Below are positions 16,398 through 31,047 of a stretch of 64,000 nt of DNA, piece after piece; position 1 is the first letter of the stretch; every line of letters begins with the position of its first letter. Below the pieces are notes generated by a model that had not been told where the DNA came from, ran no database searches, and worked only from the letters and a program-made list of their open reading frames with translations. A program made the position numbers and the translations under genes. The DNA lies in NCBI GenBank assembly GCA_946529215.1, contig CAMMZC010000003.1, forward strand, positions 3,976-67,975. The letters are read 5' to 3'. The stretch comes from an uncultured Clostridia bacterium (GTDB taxonomy: Bacteria; Bacillota; Clostridia; TANB77; CAG-508).

Positions 16398-16403
16398 AAT
16401 AGA

Positions 16404-16436
16404 AACCTTGAAAACTTACGTTTTCAAGGTTTTTTA
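16404..16436 (+). terminator. Rho-independent terminator after tRNA-fMet
   Basis: AACCTTGAAAAC-ttac-GTTTTCAAGGTT, a perfect 12-bp stem, followed by a T5 run. Confidence 0.85.
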
Positions 16437-16499: not shown

Positions 16500-18575
16500 T
16501 TATTGATTTTTTAATTTTAATATGTTGATTGTTTCCATAGTTTCTTTAGACTTCTCGTTATCTTTGCCATATACTTTGCATTGTAATTTGTATAATTTTT
16601 CGTATAACTCTAGCGAATTATTATATTTTTTCATTTTTTTATAAATACTAGCTAAATTATTTAAATTCCTTAATGTATTTGGATGAGTTTTCCCTAATGT
16701 TTCTTCACTCTTTTTATATGCTTCTTTTCCAAATTTTATAGCATTATCATAATTTTCTATATCACTATAATAAGTTGCAAGATTGTTTAACGATGTTAAT
16801 GTGTTAGGATGAGAGTCTCCCAATATTTCCTTTAATTTATTATAAACTATTTCACCTAATTTTACAGCTTTATTATAATTTCCCGTATGATTATAATAAT
16901 AAGAAAGATTATTTAAGCTTCTAAATGTATCTGGATGCTCATATCCTAATGTCTCTTTTCTATTTTTGTATACCTTTTCTCCTAACCTTATTGCTTCTTT
17001 ATAATCTTTTTTATAATTATAATAAATTGCAAGTCTGTTTAAACTTGTTAATGTATTTGGATGAGTTTTGCCTAATGTTTCTTTTCTTTTTTTATACACA
17101 TCTTTTCCGAGTTTTATTGCCATATCATAATTTCCTATATTACTGTAACTGACAGCTAGATTATTTAAACTAGTTAATGTATCAATATGAGTTTCTCCTA
17201 AACTTTCTTCTCTTTTTCTATATACTTCTTCTCCAAGTTTTATTGCTATATCATACTTTCCAATATCATCATAACCTCTCGCTATATTATTTAAACTATC
17301 TAATGTATATAAATTATTCTCTCCTAATACTTCTTTTTGGATTTTATAGCATTCATTGTTTACTTCCAATGCTTTGTTATAATCACCTGTATTTCTATAA
17401 GCAACAGCCAATTTAGTTAAACTTATCAATGTATTTAAATGTTTTTCTCCTAATTCTTTTTTATCTTTTTCATATACCTTTTTTTGCCACTCTAAAGCTT
17501 TTTTATAATCTAATTTTGTTCCTTTACCTTCTTCATATATATATACAAGCTCTTTCATTGCTTCTTTACATTCAAGATTTCCTGATTGTTCAAGCAGTTT
17601 TATTCCTTTTTCTTTATTTACTTCAACATCAATGCCATTTAAATATGCTAATCCTATAAAGTATAAGTGTTTTGGATCATCATTTTCCCTCCATGCTTCA
17701 TTTATTAAATACTTTTTTAAAGATTCACTTAAAAGCTCTGTATCATTTACTTTAATCGGAACAGGTATTTCTTTATATTTTTTTTGTAATTCTTCTTTAC
17801 TTGTATCTACCGCTTCAATTGGAACTATATTTTTACATTCTTTTTTAGCATTTGGATATTCTATTTTTTCCACATAGTTTTCTTCATTTACTAGATTTGG
17901 CGTTACAACCATTGCAAATAATTTACTTTTCTTCAAAGCTTCCTCTATTGACTCATTAAAATCTTGCCCTGGCTTTAAAAACTCATCATACCAAATTGCA
18001 ATATCTCTGCAAAATTCATTTTCATGAATTAAATGCATTATGTTTTCAGCATGTTTTTTGTCTTTTTTTCTATAACTTAAAAATATATATGCATCAAAAG
18101 CTTCTTGAACCTGTTTTCTCAATTCATCACTTACTAATACTGATTCTATATATTCTTTTAATTTACTTTTATATTTTTCTTCTCCAACAACTAACTTACT
18201 TAATGCTTGAAGGTTTCCACATTTTTCGTTAAAGTAGCTATCTATATTTGGCTCCATCATTATTGGCAAAATTGGAATATGATTATCCATTGCATATTGA
18301 AATTCTACTACTCTTGCATCACATTCTTCTGATATAAATTTCCATGTTACAGGTATCACAAATAAGTTTATTTGGCTCAAGTCATCTATAATTTCTCTTG
18401 AATTAATATTTTTATCAGCTTTATAATAAATTACACAATTTCTTATATCTAGAATTTCTTCAGTTATCTCTTCAAAATATTTATCAAAATCATTTTGATA
18501 GCAACAAAAATATACTCTTGATTTATCTTTTAGTTCTTTTCCTCTTGTTTTATATTTTAACTTTATTTCTTCCAT
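16500..18575 (-). CDS. Tandem TIR-like + TIR domain protein with C-terminal TPR array
   Basis: 691 aa. Residues ~18-110 form a TIR-like flavodoxin module (RVYFCCYQNDF...LFVIPVT...IPILPI). Residues ~160-260 form a canonical TIR (YIFLSYRKKDKKHA...IWYDEFLKPGQDF...KLFAMVVTPNL..NYVEKIEYP). Then come about 7 kinesin-light-chain-type 42-aa TPRs (LGxxHPNTLTSLNNLAxxYxxxGNYDxAIKLG). No P-loop. Confidence 0.8.
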   Translation of the reverse strand: MEEIKLKYKTRGKELKDKSRVYFCCYQNDFDKYFEEITEEILDIRNCVIYYKADKNINSREIIDDLSQINLFVIPVTWKFISEECDARVVEFQYAMDNHIPILPIMMEPNIDSYFNEKCGNLQALSKLVVGEEKYKSKLKEYIESVLVSDELRKQVQEAFDAYIFLSYRKKDKKHAENIMHLIHENEFCRDIAIWYDEFLKPGQDFNESIEEALKKSKLFAMVVTPNLVNEENYVEKIEYPNAKKECKNIVPIEAVDTSKEELQKKYKEIPVPIKVNDTELLSESLKKYLINEAWRENDDPKHLYFIGLAYLNGIDVEVNKEKGIKLLEQSGNLECKEAMKELVYIYEEGKGTKLDYKKALEWQKKVYEKDKKELGEKHLNTLISLTKLAVAYRNTGDYNKALEVNNECYKIQKEVLGENNLYTLDSLNNIARGYDDIGKYDIAIKLGEEVYRKREESLGETHIDTLTSLNNLAVSYSNIGNYDMAIKLGKDVYKKRKETLGKTHPNTLTSLNRLAIYYNYKKDYKEAIRLGEKVYKNRKETLGYEHPDTFRSLNNLSYYYNHTGNYNKAVKLGEIVYNKLKEILGDSHPNTLTSLNNLATYYSDIENYDNAIKFGKEAYKKSEETLGKTHPNTLRNLNNLASIYKKMKKYNNSLELYEKLYKLQCKVYGKDNEKSKETMETINILKLKNQ

Positions 18576-18647
18576 AACAATACTCCTATCATAAAAATTC
18601 TCTACTATTTTGTAAATGGTAAATTATTTAAAAAAATAACAATGTTA

Positions 18648-27427: not shown

Positions 27428-29746
27428 TTAAATTCTACTAGAATTGCAAGAAAAATATATAACTTGATATTTTTTCGTAAATTCTTGTAAAATTTCAAGT
27501 GCTTTTGAGGTTTTTGATTCATCTAAATTTACAAATGGGTCATCAAGCACAACAAATGGTGTTTCGCCACTAAACAAAGCATCTATTAAACTAAATCTCA
27601 TACAGATATAAATTAAGTCTTTGTATCCAGTGCTAAAAGTTTTTATTTCTTTTTGAGAACCATTTACTTCTATTTTTACATCTAAATTTGTATCAACAGA
27701 AGTTTTTAATTCTTTGGTATCAATCAAAGATAAATATTTATTAAATCCAATAACCATACTTTTTAGATAATTTGATGAAAAGTTTTCTTTTGATGTTTTT
27801 AAAAGTTCTTCTGTTTTGTTTAAAATTTTATATTTTTCTTCTAAATTGCTTATTTCTCCTTTTAAATTTTCTATATCACTTTCTAAATATTCACTTTCAT
27901 CAATTCTATTTTCTAAAACCTCTATTTGATTTTTTATTTGATTTTTTTCGTCATTTAGCATATCAATTTTGTTATTTAAAACATCTATTTTATGCTTGAT
28001 TTCTTCTTCAGAAGCGGATATTTCTTCTATATTTTTAAATTCCTCAACATTATTTTCTTTTTCATATTTTTCTTTTTTGTCAATTATATCTTTTAGTTGA
28101 TTTTTAGATTCTTCAAATTGATTTATTTTTATTTTCAAATCTTGTATTAGGTCTGTATATGATTTGTCTATACTTATATAATATGTTTTAAAGTCATCTT
28201 CTATTTCATTTTTTAATTTTTCAAGATTAATTTTTAAATTTTGTAAAGACACATCTTTTGATATTTTGTTTTTTAATAGTGTTTTATAATTACTGTATTC
28301 TGTTTTTAAACTAGTTAAATCTAAAATCTTATTTGAACTTTCTGCTGAATAATATTGTTTTAAGAAATTTTCTACATTATGGTTTATTTCTTCTTTTTTA
28401 TTTTGCATATCTTCTATTTCTTTTTGAAGATTTAAAATTTCTTTGCTCAAGCTAGAAATTTTACGTCTTTTGTTTTTAGATAAAAAACTGAATAAACCAA
28501 AAAGTATACCTGTAGAAATTAGACTTATTCCTGCTATTTTTTGTATATTTGTAATTATCAAACCACTGCCTATTATTATTAATAATAAAGATAATATTAT
28601 TGTAATTAACACCTTTTTACGTTTTTTATTAACTATGTCTAAATCATTTTGTTTTTGTTCTTTCTCTTTTTTCTTTGTATTGACTTTTTCTTCTATATCT
28701 TGTATTTGCGAATATTCAAAAATATTTTTATCTATTTCTTCTATTGAAATATTTCCATTTTTATATTTATTTTGCAGTACTTCTAATTCTTTTGCTTCTT
28801 CATCTGTTATTTTGCAATTTGATATTTCTAATTTTGTTTTTTCTATTTCATAATTTTTATTAGCTAGATTTTCTAAAAATGAATTTGTAGGAATCCCATT
28901 TGAGAAAAATTTTTCAAAATTTTTATATTCTTCTTGGTAAGAAGAATATTTAGTTAGTATTGAGTCATAAACTTCTTTTTTGGCTTTAACTCTATCTTGT
29001 TCAATCTTTTTTTTAAGTAGTTTTTGTTCCTCAATTCTTTGATTTTCTAAGGTATGTATTTCATTTATTTTTTCTTCTAATTGATTTTTTCTTGTTTCAA
29101 AATTTTCAATATCTATTTTGCTATTTTCAAATTTTCTTTGTAAATCATATAATTTAGTCTTTTTTTCGTCTATTAGTCCACCTTGTCCTCTATCTTTTTT
29201 ATATATTTTTTTTGCTTCATTGAGTTTCTTTAATGCTTCTTCTGATGTGTTTATATCATTATCACTTTCTAACATATTTGTAAGTTTAGCATTAATGCTG
29301 TCTTCCATCTCAATCTGTATTTGCCCTTGTGGTATGTATGTACTTCTTTCATAAGCACTTTTGTTTATTTTAAATATTTCTTCTCCGATATTTTCTGAAT
29401 AATCTTTGCTCTCCAAATTTGTTTCTAAATTATATAATTTAAATGTATCATCAGTAGCTTTTTTTCCAAATGTTCTTTCTATTCTATATTTTTTGCTATT
29501 TATTTCAAATTCAATACTTCCGCCATATATTCCTCCTTGCCATGGAATATATCTTTTTCTATCTGATTTTTCAAATCTTGCATTTGCTTGAGTATCTAAC
29601 CCATAAAACATAGATTTAATAAATGTTGCAAAAGTTGTTTTTCCAAATCCATTATCTTGTTTTATTGTATTTAATCCATCTTGAAAATCATAACTAAAAT
29701 CTTGCAATTTACCAAAATTTTGTATATGGCATTTTAATAATTTCAT
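27428..29746 (-). CDS. SMC/SbcC-like AAA ATPase (YhaN-like) with central TM hairpin
   Basis: 772 aa. N-terminal Walker A (NGFGKTT), a long K/E-rich coiled coil, and a C-terminal FSTGYKD / VVLDDPFVNLD (signature, Walker B, D-loop). Two hydrophobic helices sit in the middle (VLITIILSLLLIIIGSGLIIT, AGISLISTGILFGLFSFL). Confidence 0.8.
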   Translation of the reverse strand: MKLLKCHIQNFGKLQDFSYDFQDGLNTIKQDNGFGKTTFATFIKSMFYGLDTQANARFEKSDRKRYIPWQGGIYGGSIEFEINSKKYRIERTFGKKATDDTFKLYNLETNLESKDYSENIGEEIFKINKSAYERSTYIPQGQIQIEMEDSINAKLTNMLESDNDINTSEEALKKLNEAKKIYKKDRGQGGLIDEKKTKLYDLQRKFENSKIDIENFETRKNQLEEKINEIHTLENQRIEEQKLLKKKIEQDRVKAKKEVYDSILTKYSSYQEEYKNFEKFFSNGIPTNSFLENLANKNYEIEKTKLEISNCKITDEEAKELEVLQNKYKNGNISIEEIDKNIFEYSQIQDIEEKVNTKKKEKEQKQNDLDIVNKKRKKVLITIILSLLLIIIGSGLIITNIQKIAGISLISTGILFGLFSFLSKNKRRKISSLSKEILNLQKEIEDMQNKKEEINHNVENFLKQYYSAESSNKILDLTSLKTEYSNYKTLLKNKISKDVSLQNLKINLEKLKNEIEDDFKTYYISIDKSYTDLIQDLKIKINQFEESKNQLKDIIDKKEKYEKENNVEEFKNIEEISASEEEIKHKIDVLNNKIDMLNDEKNQIKNQIEVLENRIDESEYLESDIENLKGEISNLEEKYKILNKTEELLKTSKENFSSNYLKSMVIGFNKYLSLIDTKELKTSVDTNLDVKIEVNGSQKEIKTFSTGYKDLIYICMRFSLIDALFSGETPFVVLDDPFVNLDESKTSKALEILQEFTKKYQVIYFSCNSSRI

Positions 29747-29764
29747 GTTAATCCTCCATTTGTA

Positions 29765-30850
29765 TTATAATAAATCTTCTCCTGAAAGTGCTTTAATTCC
29801 AGTGCTTATAACTTTATTTTTTTCTTCCTCTGTTAAATCTTTTTGATCTAATACAAGCCTTATAAATTCACCTTTTAAAGAAATATCATTTTGAAATTTC
29901 ATATAATCTATTTTGATATTTGGCTTATCTTCGATTTTTAGAAAAAAGAAATCTGATTCAAATTTTTTTGTTAAATAATCTATATCTCTTTCTTCTCCTA
30001 TCTCAATATCTCCGCCTAAAACTAATTTTACTAAGCTTGTTCCAGGAATACCCTTTAATTTTTCTGCTATGGATTGTTCAATTTCGTTATTTTCCTTTAA
30101 TCCTGTTAAGTCTGCATGAACTTCATATAATGTTCTATACGAAAAAGGTATAAACTCAGTTTTTATCTTATTATCTTCTATATTTAGTAGCACGAATCCC
30201 TTTTCTCCACATTCATCAAATCCTCTTCCTTCTAGACAACCAGAATAACAATATACTCCCCTATTGTCTAATTTTTCTTTTTTGTATGAATGAATATGTC
30301 CTAATGCAAGATAATCTATATTTTTGTTTTTAAGCTCTTTTAAATTTATTATCTCAGCTTTATCTTTTATAGATGTTTCTGACTCTTGACCATGCATAAC
30401 AACTATGTTTAACTTATTTTTTTCTAGAAATAAAGAATTATATATTTCATAATTTGGAGTATTTCCAAACTCTATTCCAGAAATTGTTATATTGCCATAT
30501 TCATAAGTTTGCCAATTATTTCTGTTAAATGTTTTTAAATTTGATGGTAATTCTTCATCTTCATCTATAAATCCGGCTTCATCATGATTTCCTTTTAAAT
30601 AGACAAAATCTATTTCAGGATTAGATATAATAGCATTTTTAACAGTCTTTTTAGCTTTAACAGTAACTGCTTTTTTATCAAATAAATCTCCTGCAATTAT
30701 TATTATTTTAACATCATTTTCTTTTGCATATTGTACCATTCTATCGAATGTAAGCAAAATTTCATTTTTTCTTTCTCTTGCTTTTTCTTTATCTAAGTTT
30801 GTTTCCATTTTAGAATCAAGATGTAAATCACTACAATGAATTATTTTCAT
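29765..30850 (-). CDS. SbcD/Mre11-family metallophosphoesterase (YhaO-like)
   Basis: MKIIHCSDLHLD, IIAGDLFD, GNHD, MHGQ and GHIH calcineurin-like phosphoesterase motifs. The ORF is open to 30880, but the ATG at 30850 matches the family start and has a GGAAAGGAA RBS. Confidence 0.85.
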   Translation of the reverse strand: MKIIHCSDLHLDSKMETNLDKEKARERKNEILLTFDRMVQYAKENDVKIIIIAGDLFDKKAVTVKAKKTVKNAIISNPEIDFVYLKGNHDEAGFIDEDEELPSNLKTFNRNNWQTYEYGNITISGIEFGNTPNYEIYNSLFLEKNKLNIVVMHGQESETSIKDKAEIINLKELKNKNIDYLALGHIHSYKKEKLDNRGVYCYSGCLEGRGFDECGEKGFVLLNIEDNKIKTEFIPFSYRTLYEVHADLTGLKENNEIEQSIAEKLKGIPGTSLVKLVLGGDIEIGEERDIDYLTKKFESDFFFLKIEDKPNIKIDYMKFQNDISLKGEFIRLVLDQKDLTEEEKNKVISTGIKALSGEDLL

Positions 30851-31047
30851 ATTTACTGACATTCCTTTCCTGCAAGGCACAAAATTTGATTAAAATAACT
30901 GCTTTTTCAGTTATTTTCAAACTTGCCTTGCTTTTCTAGAAGTTGACTAAAAGAAATTCTGCCCAATTTCTTTTTCAAAATATATCCTAACAAAAAAACA
31001 AAAAAATGTCAATAGTTTTTCGAACATTTTTTTGTTTTCTTTTTTTA

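Follow-up and report, generated by a model that had tools for sequence, protein, structure and literature searches.

The window analysed here is a 64,000-nt stretch of DNA from an uncultured Clostridia bacterium. Its minus strand carries, at 16500..18575, a complete open reading frame of 691 aa whose product joins a TIR-like module 1, a TIR module 2, a Sel1-like linker and seven TPR_12 units; an identical 691-aa product is on record on an NCBI contig. Expression signals, recognised as consensus matches only, flank the gene on the same strand: a promoter-like site and ribosome-binding site together occupy 18583..18616 (TTTACA, a 17-nt spacer and TATGAT at 18616..18588; AGGAG at 18587..18583), and a terminator-like hairpin lies at 16403..16432, 68 nt past the stop codon. 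The neighbours of the gene in the window are housekeeping (L21/L27, Pgi, rhomboid). No PADLOC-recognisable defence island was found around it, which counts against an immune reading. The best PADLOC matches of the protein were a TIR-SAVED effector and ThsB (the latter weak, E 2e-4), a faint likeness to effectors that speaks for an immune reading, and none of the PADLOC system models fits it past the level of the TIR domain itself.

Module 2 (aa 159-270; 17766..18101, minus strand) is a canonical TIR_2 domain, as indicated by Pfam, by PDB profile matches and by conservation across 340 homologs. Pfam TIR_2 (PF13676) matches aa 164-257 with E 5.9e-12 and 46.6 bits, passing the curated gathering threshold (28) for membership in the TIR superfamily. 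The four motifs that the initial annotation had quoted for this module are all present in the 691-aa reading frame: IFLSYRKKD at aa 164-172, WYDEFLKPG at 195-203, LFAMVVTP at 219-226 and NYVEKIEYP at 233-241. The module contains a beta-A strand (FLSYRKKD), a BB loop (W195-x-D197-E198, then P202-G203) and an alpha-C helix carrying E239, and its beta-A and BB-loop motifs are invariant across the 340 homologs. The stretch NYVEKIEYP had been put forward as holding a candidate catalytic Glu, and the proposal stands for one of its two glutamates: E239 (codon GAA at 17859..17861, minus strand; codon checked), kept in 340/340 aligned homologs, is the predicted catalytic residue, whereas E236 was rejected, that position being Met in 228/342 homologs. 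Alignment to known TIR domains, proposed earlier as a check on this residue, agreed in large part. In five of six canonical TIRs, TIR-1 (WVHKE) among them, the E239 column holds the Glu of a conserved W-x-x-x-E motif, the residue that is catalytic in SARM1 and TIR-1. The exception is AbTIR, whose catalytic Glu is placed by HMMER at V235, one helical turn or four residues before E239, and by MAFFT likewise four residues earlier. With the AbTIR offset as a caveat, E239 supplies the conserved Glu at the start of alpha-C that characterises enzymatic TIRs.

The module 2 profile matches AbTIR (E 1.5e-5) and also TIR-1/SARM1 in the PDB. With SARM1 and C. elegans TIR-1 the module shares the F-[IL]-S-Y-R-[RK] start and a 13-residue spacing from the Glu to a K-N-I-[IV]-P-I strand, and the predicted design, a TIR NADase controlled by a helical-repeat domain with no NTPase, is common to them as well. 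SARM1 differs in its ARM-SAM-SAM-TIR order, its single TIR per chain and its SAM-driven oligomerisation, and the similarity is weak (E about 0.007). Module 2 is also the most constrained region of the protein: its dN/dS is 0.03-0.04 vs 0.19-0.20 in the TPR region, and between homologs it keeps 76-98% identity where the TPR region falls to 37-40%. Judged by these sequence features, module 2 would be a catalytically competent NAD+ glycohydrolase or cyclase.

Module 1 (aa 1-158; 18102..18575, minus strand) is a duplicated and diverged TIR. Searching Pfam with module 1 alone gave no match, its profile had no significant match among PDB sequences, and kinship with TIR domains was revealed by fold comparison only: the domain has five strands in a flavodoxin-like beta/alpha fold, and TIR domains are the structures nearest to it, in keeping with its earlier description as a more divergent TIR-like flavodoxin fold. 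At the catalytic-Glu position it has an acidic residue, E91, and this column is Asp or Glu in 318/342 sequences. A family motif, H26-P27, is replaced by Y26-Q27 in the window copy while some 93% of module 1 sequences retain it; with the His-Pro motif lost, module 1 may be impaired in the window strain. In predicted structures pTM fell from 0.83 for module 1 by itself to 0.58 for the module pair. How the two TIR modules are oriented to each other is thus predicted with low confidence, which so far leaves the proposed pairing in cis structurally unsupported.

A helical linker of Sel1-like repeats and one degenerate TPR unit (aa 271-385; 17421..17765, minus strand) leads from the TIR pair into the repeat array, with a Pfam Sel1 match at aa 305-333 and the degenerate unit at 344-385. 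The array itself (aa 386-679; 16539..17420, minus strand), a predicted ligand-sensing solenoid, consists of seven 42-aa units exactly in phase, with 44% self-identity at lag 42 vs about 5-12% at other lags, and Pfam recognises seven stretches each of TPR_12 (E 3.4e-79) and TPR_10 (E 9e-65). These regular units are of the kinesin-light-chain type, and the initial count of about seven near-regular 42-aa repeats was correct. They are the source of a 126-bp periodicity in the DNA that had also been noted; Tandem Repeats Finder recovers the period, but over a narrower extent than the 16.55-17.5 kb first given (16649..17308; 4.9 copies at 69% and 2.2 copies at 80% identity). The unit positions that differ from repeat to repeat are also those that differ among orthologs, and substitutions concentrate there. 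Repeat number, for which a comparison between strains had been suggested, does vary, from an estimated 2 or so to 36 units across the family. Two further ideas about the array were rejected. Quantisation of protein length by 42 aa across the family gives a weak signal: 21% of lengths are no more than 3 aa away from a multiple of 42 vs 17% expected, because tails vary. The protein is also not the TPR protein of the FxSxx-COOH system (NCBIfam NF040586), since its 267.6 bits fall short of the cut-off of 300 for this full-length model; the alignment is limited to the TPR region (aa 356-605 vs model positions 487-736 of 830). The difference in constraint (dN/dS of 0.03 in the TIR, 0.2 in the TPR) fits a TPR sensor that would drive an N-terminal, NAD+-cleaving effector.

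No NTPase family in Pfam or NCBIfam matches the protein, and no Walker A motif is present in it. The same holds for the family: a true Walker A was found in 0/88 family ORFs from other genomes, the lone pattern match (in L048) being the N-terminal G-x-x-P-x-G-K stretch of module 1. Two observations made at the outset, that tandem TIR or TIR-like domains are fused to a TPR array with no NTPase and that the usual STAND ATPase between sensor and effector is missing, thus hold for the window protein and for its 88 homologs. Bacterial TIR-STAND/NLR proteins (TIR-NB-ARC-TPR, Avs-type) likewise begin with a TIR and end in a kinesin-light-chain-type TPR_12/TPR_10 array, but their defining NB-ARC/STAND ATPase is missing here and a second TIR stands at the N-terminus instead. 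Membership in the STAND/NLR-like group (Avs, TIR-NLR) was rejected, as no central P-loop NTPase (NB-ARC/NACHT) was found. Closer parallels in design are two NTPase-less defence proteins: Vulcan, a single-protein NIR/DUF4062-HEAT system (bioRxiv 10.64898/2026.09.04.749371), and DSR2, a SIR2 and alpha-solenoid protein (PMC11850899). In each case one chain, encoded by a lone gene, carries an N-terminal NAD+-degrading domain and a C-terminal helical-repeat sensor without an NTPase. The present protein shares this architecture and gene organisation as a design analogy, not as a homologous member; its predicted catalytic domain is a tandem-duplicated TIR, not NIR or SIR2, and in place of HEAT-like repeats it has TPR_12 units with a regular length of 42 aa. 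TIR and TPR modules are also combined in the NAD+-linked phage defence of BcTir/BcTpr (bioRxiv 10.1101/2023.05.26.542521), but that system is divided between two genes, and the TPR protein bears the NADase as an N-terminal glycosidase domain that is not a TIR, whereas in the present protein a single chain contains the TIR pair and the TPR array.

The family to which the protein belongs is large, with about 2,300 clusters at 50% identity from >500 species, mostly animal-gut Clostridia, and it is abundant in the gut Clostridia of humans and animals. Members are chromosomal, non-syntenic and under purifying selection. A phage or plasmid origin was rejected: tblastn against 50,697 phage and 72,556 plasmid records gave no match, an absence that also counts against the immune reading, and IMG/VR gave 2 matches only. 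No published study of the tandem-TIR-TPR family, and no biochemical data for any member, was found. In the collection searched, members are labelled "tetratricopeptide repeat protein" or are unnamed, and catalogues of gut defence may therefore miss a major component. When genes within four positions were clustered in 80 loci, no conserved operon partner emerged: the gene is stand-alone, without an obligatory partner. Three points about it had gone unnoticed before, namely the large stand-alone family, the lost His-Pro motif and recurrent neighbours with a RyR domain.

Such wide distribution in gut Clostridia, together with the housekeeping neighbours in the window and the poor fit to PADLOC models, could be taken to mean that this is a non-enzymatic scaffold or housekeeping TPR protein whose TIRs act only as adaptors between proteins, in the manner of MyD88-type signalling in animals, and which plays no part in conflict. 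We regard this as improbable. An adaptor role sits poorly with the absolute conservation of a Glu at the catalytic position along with the BB-loop and beta-A motifs, and a housekeeping role with the accessory pattern of the family: close orthologs occupy differing genomic contexts, tandem paralog arrays occur in six loci (L008, L013, L053, L057, L063 and L069), and repeat number is highly variable. The recurrent RyR linkage, and an Abi_2-RyR fusion in one ortholog of a window operon (see below), also argue against it. Far less probable still is a secreted or injected effector of the Tcp/Btp kind acting on host or competitor cells. In its favour, the organisms live as commensals in the gut, and some bacteria are known to use TIR effectors against the NAD+ or TLR signalling of a host (PMC7188309, PMC9092222), but the 691-aa protein contains no transmembrane-like hydrophobic stretch and, as read by eye, no obvious N-terminal signal peptide. 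Secretion-system genes are absent among the neighbours in the 80 loci, and a TPR sensor and paralog arrays are more typical of intracellular receptors.

The reading that we favour, at a probability of roughly 0.55, is that the protein is a stand-alone cytoplasmic immune sensor-effector, an NTPase-less TIR system comparable to DSR2 or Vulcan, and that the family probably cleaves NAD+ in immunity. The solenoid of seven 42-aa units with its Sel1-like capping repeats would bind a protein or peptide derived from the invader, and the N-terminal TIR pair would be the output, with module 2 the predicted NAD+-cleaving unit. TIR enzymes need a second TIR surface for a complete or gated active site. Module 1 could supply that surface in cis, completing or gating the active site. 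STAND ATPases are thought to drive oligomerisation, and ligand-driven clustering of the TPR arrays might replace that step. An infected cell would then be expected to use up its NAD+ and stop growing. Should module 2 prove to be an active NADase, the family would show that no STAND ATPase is required to couple a TIR effector to a TPR receptor; the built-in second TIR may assume the oligomerisation role, which would make the activation rule of TIR enzymes directly testable. In a minority of genomes, RyR-domain proteins encoded alongside probably read or buffer an ADPR-type product as well, and the protein may also feed RyR-domain receptors.

Genes with a RyR domain (PF02026) are the sole neighbours that we count as recurrent for the family. 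They gave 14 matches in 11/81 loci, all no more than two genes away from the family gene, where just 33% of the genes in RyR-bearing loci lie that close. Coupling is tight in several cases (a 4-bp overlap in L009, 22 bp in L030, and operons in L039, L043 and L052). The window itself has a RyR-only gene (E 6e-35; 25289..25579, 96 aa) and, three genes upstream, a RyR membrane gene (634 aa). It is thus conceivable, if rather unlikely, that the protein is mainly a ThsB-like signal generator in a Thoeris-like arrangement: once it senses an invader, it would make a cyclic ADPR isomer for RyR proteins, either membrane proteins with TM, Rossmann/TrkA_N and RyR parts or small RyR-only proteins, acting as effector or buffer, and its own depletion of NAD+ would be secondary. 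Phage RyR-domain proteins bind or cleave 2'cADPR and 3'cADPR (PMC13232231), and the cellular RyR family retains a matching His/Trp/His/Asp pattern, but ligand binding by the cellular proteins is putative. Against this reading, about 86% of family loci lack a RyR gene within 10 kb, and RyR neighbours are in some cases encoded on the opposite strand. The RyR operon of the window is directly coupled, across a 27-bp gap, to a DUF4062/NIR-TPR gene; from the TIR-TIR-TPR gene it is set apart by an intervening rhomboid-like gene and by a distinct promoter-like site, and orthologs of the operon occur without the TIR-TIR-TPR gene. Like ThsB, the TIR here may generate cADPR-type signals, and in a subset of loci its partner is a membrane protein that putatively binds a ligand. 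ThsB, however, is small and always accompanied by an effector gene, whereas here 86% of loci are partnerless and the TIR carries a sensor array. Membership in Thoeris was rejected: no neighbour is conserved in the 80 loci, RyR genes are adjacent in just 11/81, and ThsB matches are weak. Expanded Thoeris types have been surveyed (bioRxiv 10.64898/2025.12.03.692087), and the portions of the main and supplement text of that survey examined here make no mention of RyR-domain effectors.

A broader role for the RyR proteins is suggested by a reciprocal test, in which homologs of the window RyR membrane protein were found 8-22 bp from TIR genes of other architectures, namely TIR-WD40 (eight loci), TIR-NB-ARC-TPR, TIR-only and TIR-MORN. 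In one case (L088) the RyR gene that adjoins a TIR-NB-ARC-TPR protein belongs to the same family as that of the window. A tentative proposal, which we hold at well under even odds, is that TIR-repeat sensors and cellular RyR proteins form an undescribed Thoeris-like immune pathway with small RyR-only or Abi_2-RyR proteins as buffers or relays of the signal. Its sensors may include the tandem-TIR-TPR, TIR-WD40, TIR-MORN, TIR-NB-ARC-TPR and neighbouring NIR-TPR proteins, and a TIR-made ADPR-type signal may be received by a RyR domain on a membrane/Rossmann (TrkA_N-like) module. If true, this would be a bacterial counterpart of cADPR-to-ryanodine-receptor signalling. Through the recurrent link, RyR proteins of the cell become candidate receptors or regulators for the ADPR signals that TIRs make, which complements the recent finding that phage RyR proteins bind and cleave such signals. 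Apart from the RyR genes, the most that turned up repeatedly near the family gene was ABC-transporter-like genes, in 9 of the 80 loci.

The tandem TIR-TPR gene is a single open reading frame at 16500..18575 on the minus strand, encoding a protein of 691 aa in which all four peptide motifs quoted in the initial annotation are found (aa 164-172, 195-203, 219-226 and 233-241). In Pfam, TIR_2 covers aa 164-257 with 46.6 bits (cut-off 28), a Sel1 repeat falls at aa 305-333, and TPR_12 (E 3e-79) and TPR_10 each match seven stretches. The array, described earlier as 42-aa TPR_12 repeats with a DNA periodicity of about 126 bp, proved to be exactly phased: seven units of 42 aa span aa 386-679, self-identity is 44% at lag 42 compared with about 5-12% at other lags, and Tandem Repeats Finder gives a matching 126-bp period at 16649..17308. 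The missing NTPase was likewise borne out, as no NTPase family, P-loop or other, matched the protein in Pfam or NCBIfam, and a search of it for the Walker A pattern found none. Judged by consensus matches only, the gene appears to be transcribed on its own: a promoter-like TTTACA-17-TATGAT site and a putative AGGAG ribosome-binding site lie just upstream, and a candidate hairpin lies 68 nt past the stop codon. Its G+C content (25%) is in line with that of the window (27%). Together, reading frame, motifs, domains, repeats and G+C confirm the original observation.

Residues 1-158 (module 1) matched no family in a Pfam scan, and a profile built from them found nothing among PDB sequences. An AlphaFold2 model of aa 1-292, made from 49 homologs (pLDDT 88), predicts two successive beta-alpha modules with their elements in the same order, and module 1 modelled alone reaches pLDDT 87 and pTM 0.83. 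Profile-profile alignment relates module 1 to module 2 (aa 159-270) with 97% probability (E 5e-11), and the module 1 profile, run against 1.84 billion representatives, nearly always found two matching stretches per protein. These models and profile comparisons point to an internal duplication. The annotation had called the first module a divergent, TIR-like fold; by profile alignment and predicted fold it is a second TIR, and "tandem TIR" is the right name. For the modelled pair pTM is 0.58, with the relative orientation of the modules not confidently predicted. At the module 1 column equivalent to E239, the predicted catalytic glutamate of module 2, Asp occurs in 223 sequences and Glu in 95 (E91 in the window copy). 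The most conserved module 1 motif is H26-P27, with H26 in 318 of 342 homologs (93%) and P27 in 292 of 342 (85%). The window copy carries Y26-Q27 in its place (codons 18498..18500 and 18495..18497, minus strand), and His-Pro is kept in its closest species-level relatives, the homologous proteins P0002 and P0003.

Module 2 conservation, taken over 342 distinct homologs, shows F165, S167, Y168, R169, K170, D172, W195, D197, E198, P202, G203, T225, P226, N233, E239 and P241 to be essentially invariant. A catalytic Glu had been proposed within NYVEKIEYP: E239 holds up, being Glu in 340 of the 340 homologs aligned at that column, but the motif's other glutamate, E236, was rejected, since that position is Met in 228 of 342. 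Comparison with known TIRs, which had been suggested as a check, gave agreement with one exception. In the HMMER alignment E239 is paired with the "WVHKEL" Glu of C. elegans TIR-1, a residue equivalent to the catalytic E642 of SARM1. In a MAFFT L-INS-i alignment that included canonical TIRs from related loci, the same column holds the Glu of WCKKE (TIR-WD40), WVPKE (TIR-only), DCLNE (TIR-NB-ARC), SIATE (TIR-MORN) and WVHKE (TIR-1). AbTIR is the sole outlier by both HMMER and MAFFT, with its Glu set four residues before E239 and on the same face of the helix. We treat the active-site geometry of E239 as predicted.

The protein belongs to a family of fixed architecture (module 1, module 2, linker, then TPR array) whose only source label is "tetratricopeptide repeat protein". 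The first homolog search returned about 3,000 matches, most spanning 95-100% of the query; the module 1 profile gave proteins about 560-1,900 aa long that fall into 2,338 clusters at 50% identity, and species-representative genomes hold more than 521 family loci. Hosts are almost all animal-gut Clostridia (Oscillospiraceae, Lachnospiraceae, Ruminococcus, Christensenellaceae), with a few Spirochaetia, Erysipelotrichaceae and Bacilli, and the nearest relatives are MAGs of rabbit-gut Clostridia, in which module 2 is 92-93% identical. Among 88 family ORFs no genuine Walker A motif was seen; the lone pattern match falls in the N-terminal region of module 1. Repeat counts are estimated at roughly 2 to 36 per protein and peak at 9-11; the window copy has 7. 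Head-to-tail paralogs occur, two or three per locus, at L008, L013, L053, L057, L063 and L069 (loci from other genomes); these tandem paralogs are unequal in length and hence in repeat number. The genomic context of close orthologs (85-87% identity) differs from that of the window copy. The family was sought in phage and plasmid collections and not found, and is almost absent from IMG/VR. Against two orthologs, dN/dS is 0.03-0.04 for module 2, 0.05-0.11 for module 1 and 0.19-0.20 for the TPR array; by this measure the whole gene is under purifying selection. Within the 42-aa unit, the array positions substituted between orthologs are those that also differ from repeat to repeat. This pattern would be expected of a solenoid whose structure is fixed while its binding surface evolves, though the comparison does not amount to a formal positive-selection test.

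Several known systems resemble this arrangement. DUF4062, renamed NIR, is an NADase, and Vulcan, a NIR with HEAT repeats, defends without any NTPase (bioRxiv 10.64898/2026.09.04.749371). Vulcan and DSR2 share the design of an NADase with a helical-repeat sensor and no NTPase. TIR-NB-ARC-TPR proteins have like domain content, the TIR-TIR-TPR protein resembling such a protein minus its ATPase. One defining feature each of STAND, Thoeris and FxSxx-TPR was looked for and found lacking, which places the protein outside all three. NTPase-less TIR fusions to TPR-containing modules have already been noted in comparative-genomic surveys (PMC8195603); our literature search found no prior description of, and no experimental work on, the tandem-TIR-TPR family. 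The best-supported model, to which we assign a probability of roughly 0.55, describes a TIR sensor-effector without an NTPase, in which the TPR array would act as receptor, module 2 as the NAD+-cleaving output, and module 1 as a built-in partner or regulator TIR. The interpretation first offered is supported overall, refined by E239 as the Glu and by module 1 as a true second TIR. The invariant catalytic-site residues, together with the gene's accessory behaviour and the absence of export signals, make a purely structural protein or a secreted effector unlikely.

Clustering of every gene lying up to four positions away from the family gene in 80 loci showed no obligatory partner. The sole recurrent neighbours are RyR-domain (PF02026) proteins (14 matches in 11 of 81 loci), and every match lies at most two genes from the family gene, compared with 33% of genes in those loci that lie so close (roughly p = 1e-6 by locus). 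Coupling can be tight (a 4-bp overlap at L009, a 22-bp gap at L030), and operons join the two genes at L039, L043 and L052. Proteins of about 1,360-1,410 aa also adjoin family genes at L016 (5010..9089; a protein kinase domain, with weak matches to RyR and, at the C-terminus, to a Card1-like endonuclease) and L056 (4568..8803; a weak RyR match).

The window has RyR genes of its own: a 96-aa RyR-only gene (25289..25579, minus strand; PF02026, E 6e-35), whose stop codon abuts a gene for a 634-aa RyR membrane-type protein (23384..25288, minus). The N-terminal part of the latter contains 3-4 transmembrane-like segments; a GxGxxG Rossmann region (TrkA_N in its homolog P0287) and a C-terminal RyR domain are also present. 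In the reciprocal test, most loci with enough flank had a TIR gene 8-22 bp from the homolog of the 634-aa protein: TIR-WD40 (L087, L093-L097, L099, L100), TIR-NB-ARC-TPR (L088), TIR-only (L089) and TIR-MORN (L039). This adjacency points to a TIR/RyR gene pair that has not been described. These RyR proteins are covered by no PADLOC model, and neither RyR nor PF02026 occurs in the main text of a recent Thoeris-type survey or in the portions of its supplement that were available as text. Two recent preprints, the one on NIR and Vulcan cited above and one on phage RyR domains, make the neighbour link meaningful. In the latter, phage RyR-domain proteins bind or cleave 2'cADPR and 3'cADPR (PMC13232231), and the cellular RyR family keeps H554, W557, H592 and D621, a pattern matching the phage proteins. 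A bacterial TIR-to-RyR-domain signalling axis is a tentative proposal, with odds well short of even.

Downstream of the 634-aa RyR gene by 27 bp lies a gene for a 1,270-aa protein (19544..23356, minus) with an N-terminal DUF4062/NIR domain, a TPR-like middle and C-terminal SpaA/prealbumin-like domains, in which a Walker A motif is absent. It is followed by a rhomboid-like gene and then the TIR-TIR-TPR gene, with the RyR genes on the same strand. The main rival reading is that the TIR-TIR-TPR protein chiefly makes a signal for RyR-domain receptors, a role compatible with the sensor-effector model. We consider this improbable: 86% of family loci have no RyR neighbour, in the window it is the NIR gene, rather than the TIR-TIR-TPR gene, to which the RyR operon is coupled, and orthologs of that operon occur without the TIR-TIR-TPR gene. 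The sensor-effector model remains our preferred reading.

The 1,270-aa protein is rare (only 5 full-length homologs in 5.8 billion sequences); it has a Glu at around aa 96-97, roughly where NIR domains have their catalytic Glu, and a candidate second TIR-like module near aa 175-230, spotted by eye. In an ortholog of the window operon at L116 (400..7330), the small RyR protein is joined in one chain with an Abi_2 (abortive-infection) domain (387 aa), followed by the 634-aa RyR membrane protein and then the NIR-TPR-SpaA protein. Elsewhere in the window, 27428..30880 (minus) holds a 772-aa SbcC-like AAA protein with weak PADLOC matches to LmuB, JetC and AriA, adjoined by a 371-aa calcineurin-like phosphoesterase; the two are most simply an SbcCD pair. 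Ribosomal protein L21 (15656..16075, minus) has a long C-terminal tail rich in Lys, Thr and Ala; its gene and that of L27 (15313..15594) have no ysxB-like gene between them, and L27 begins MAHKKG, without an N-terminal propeptide.
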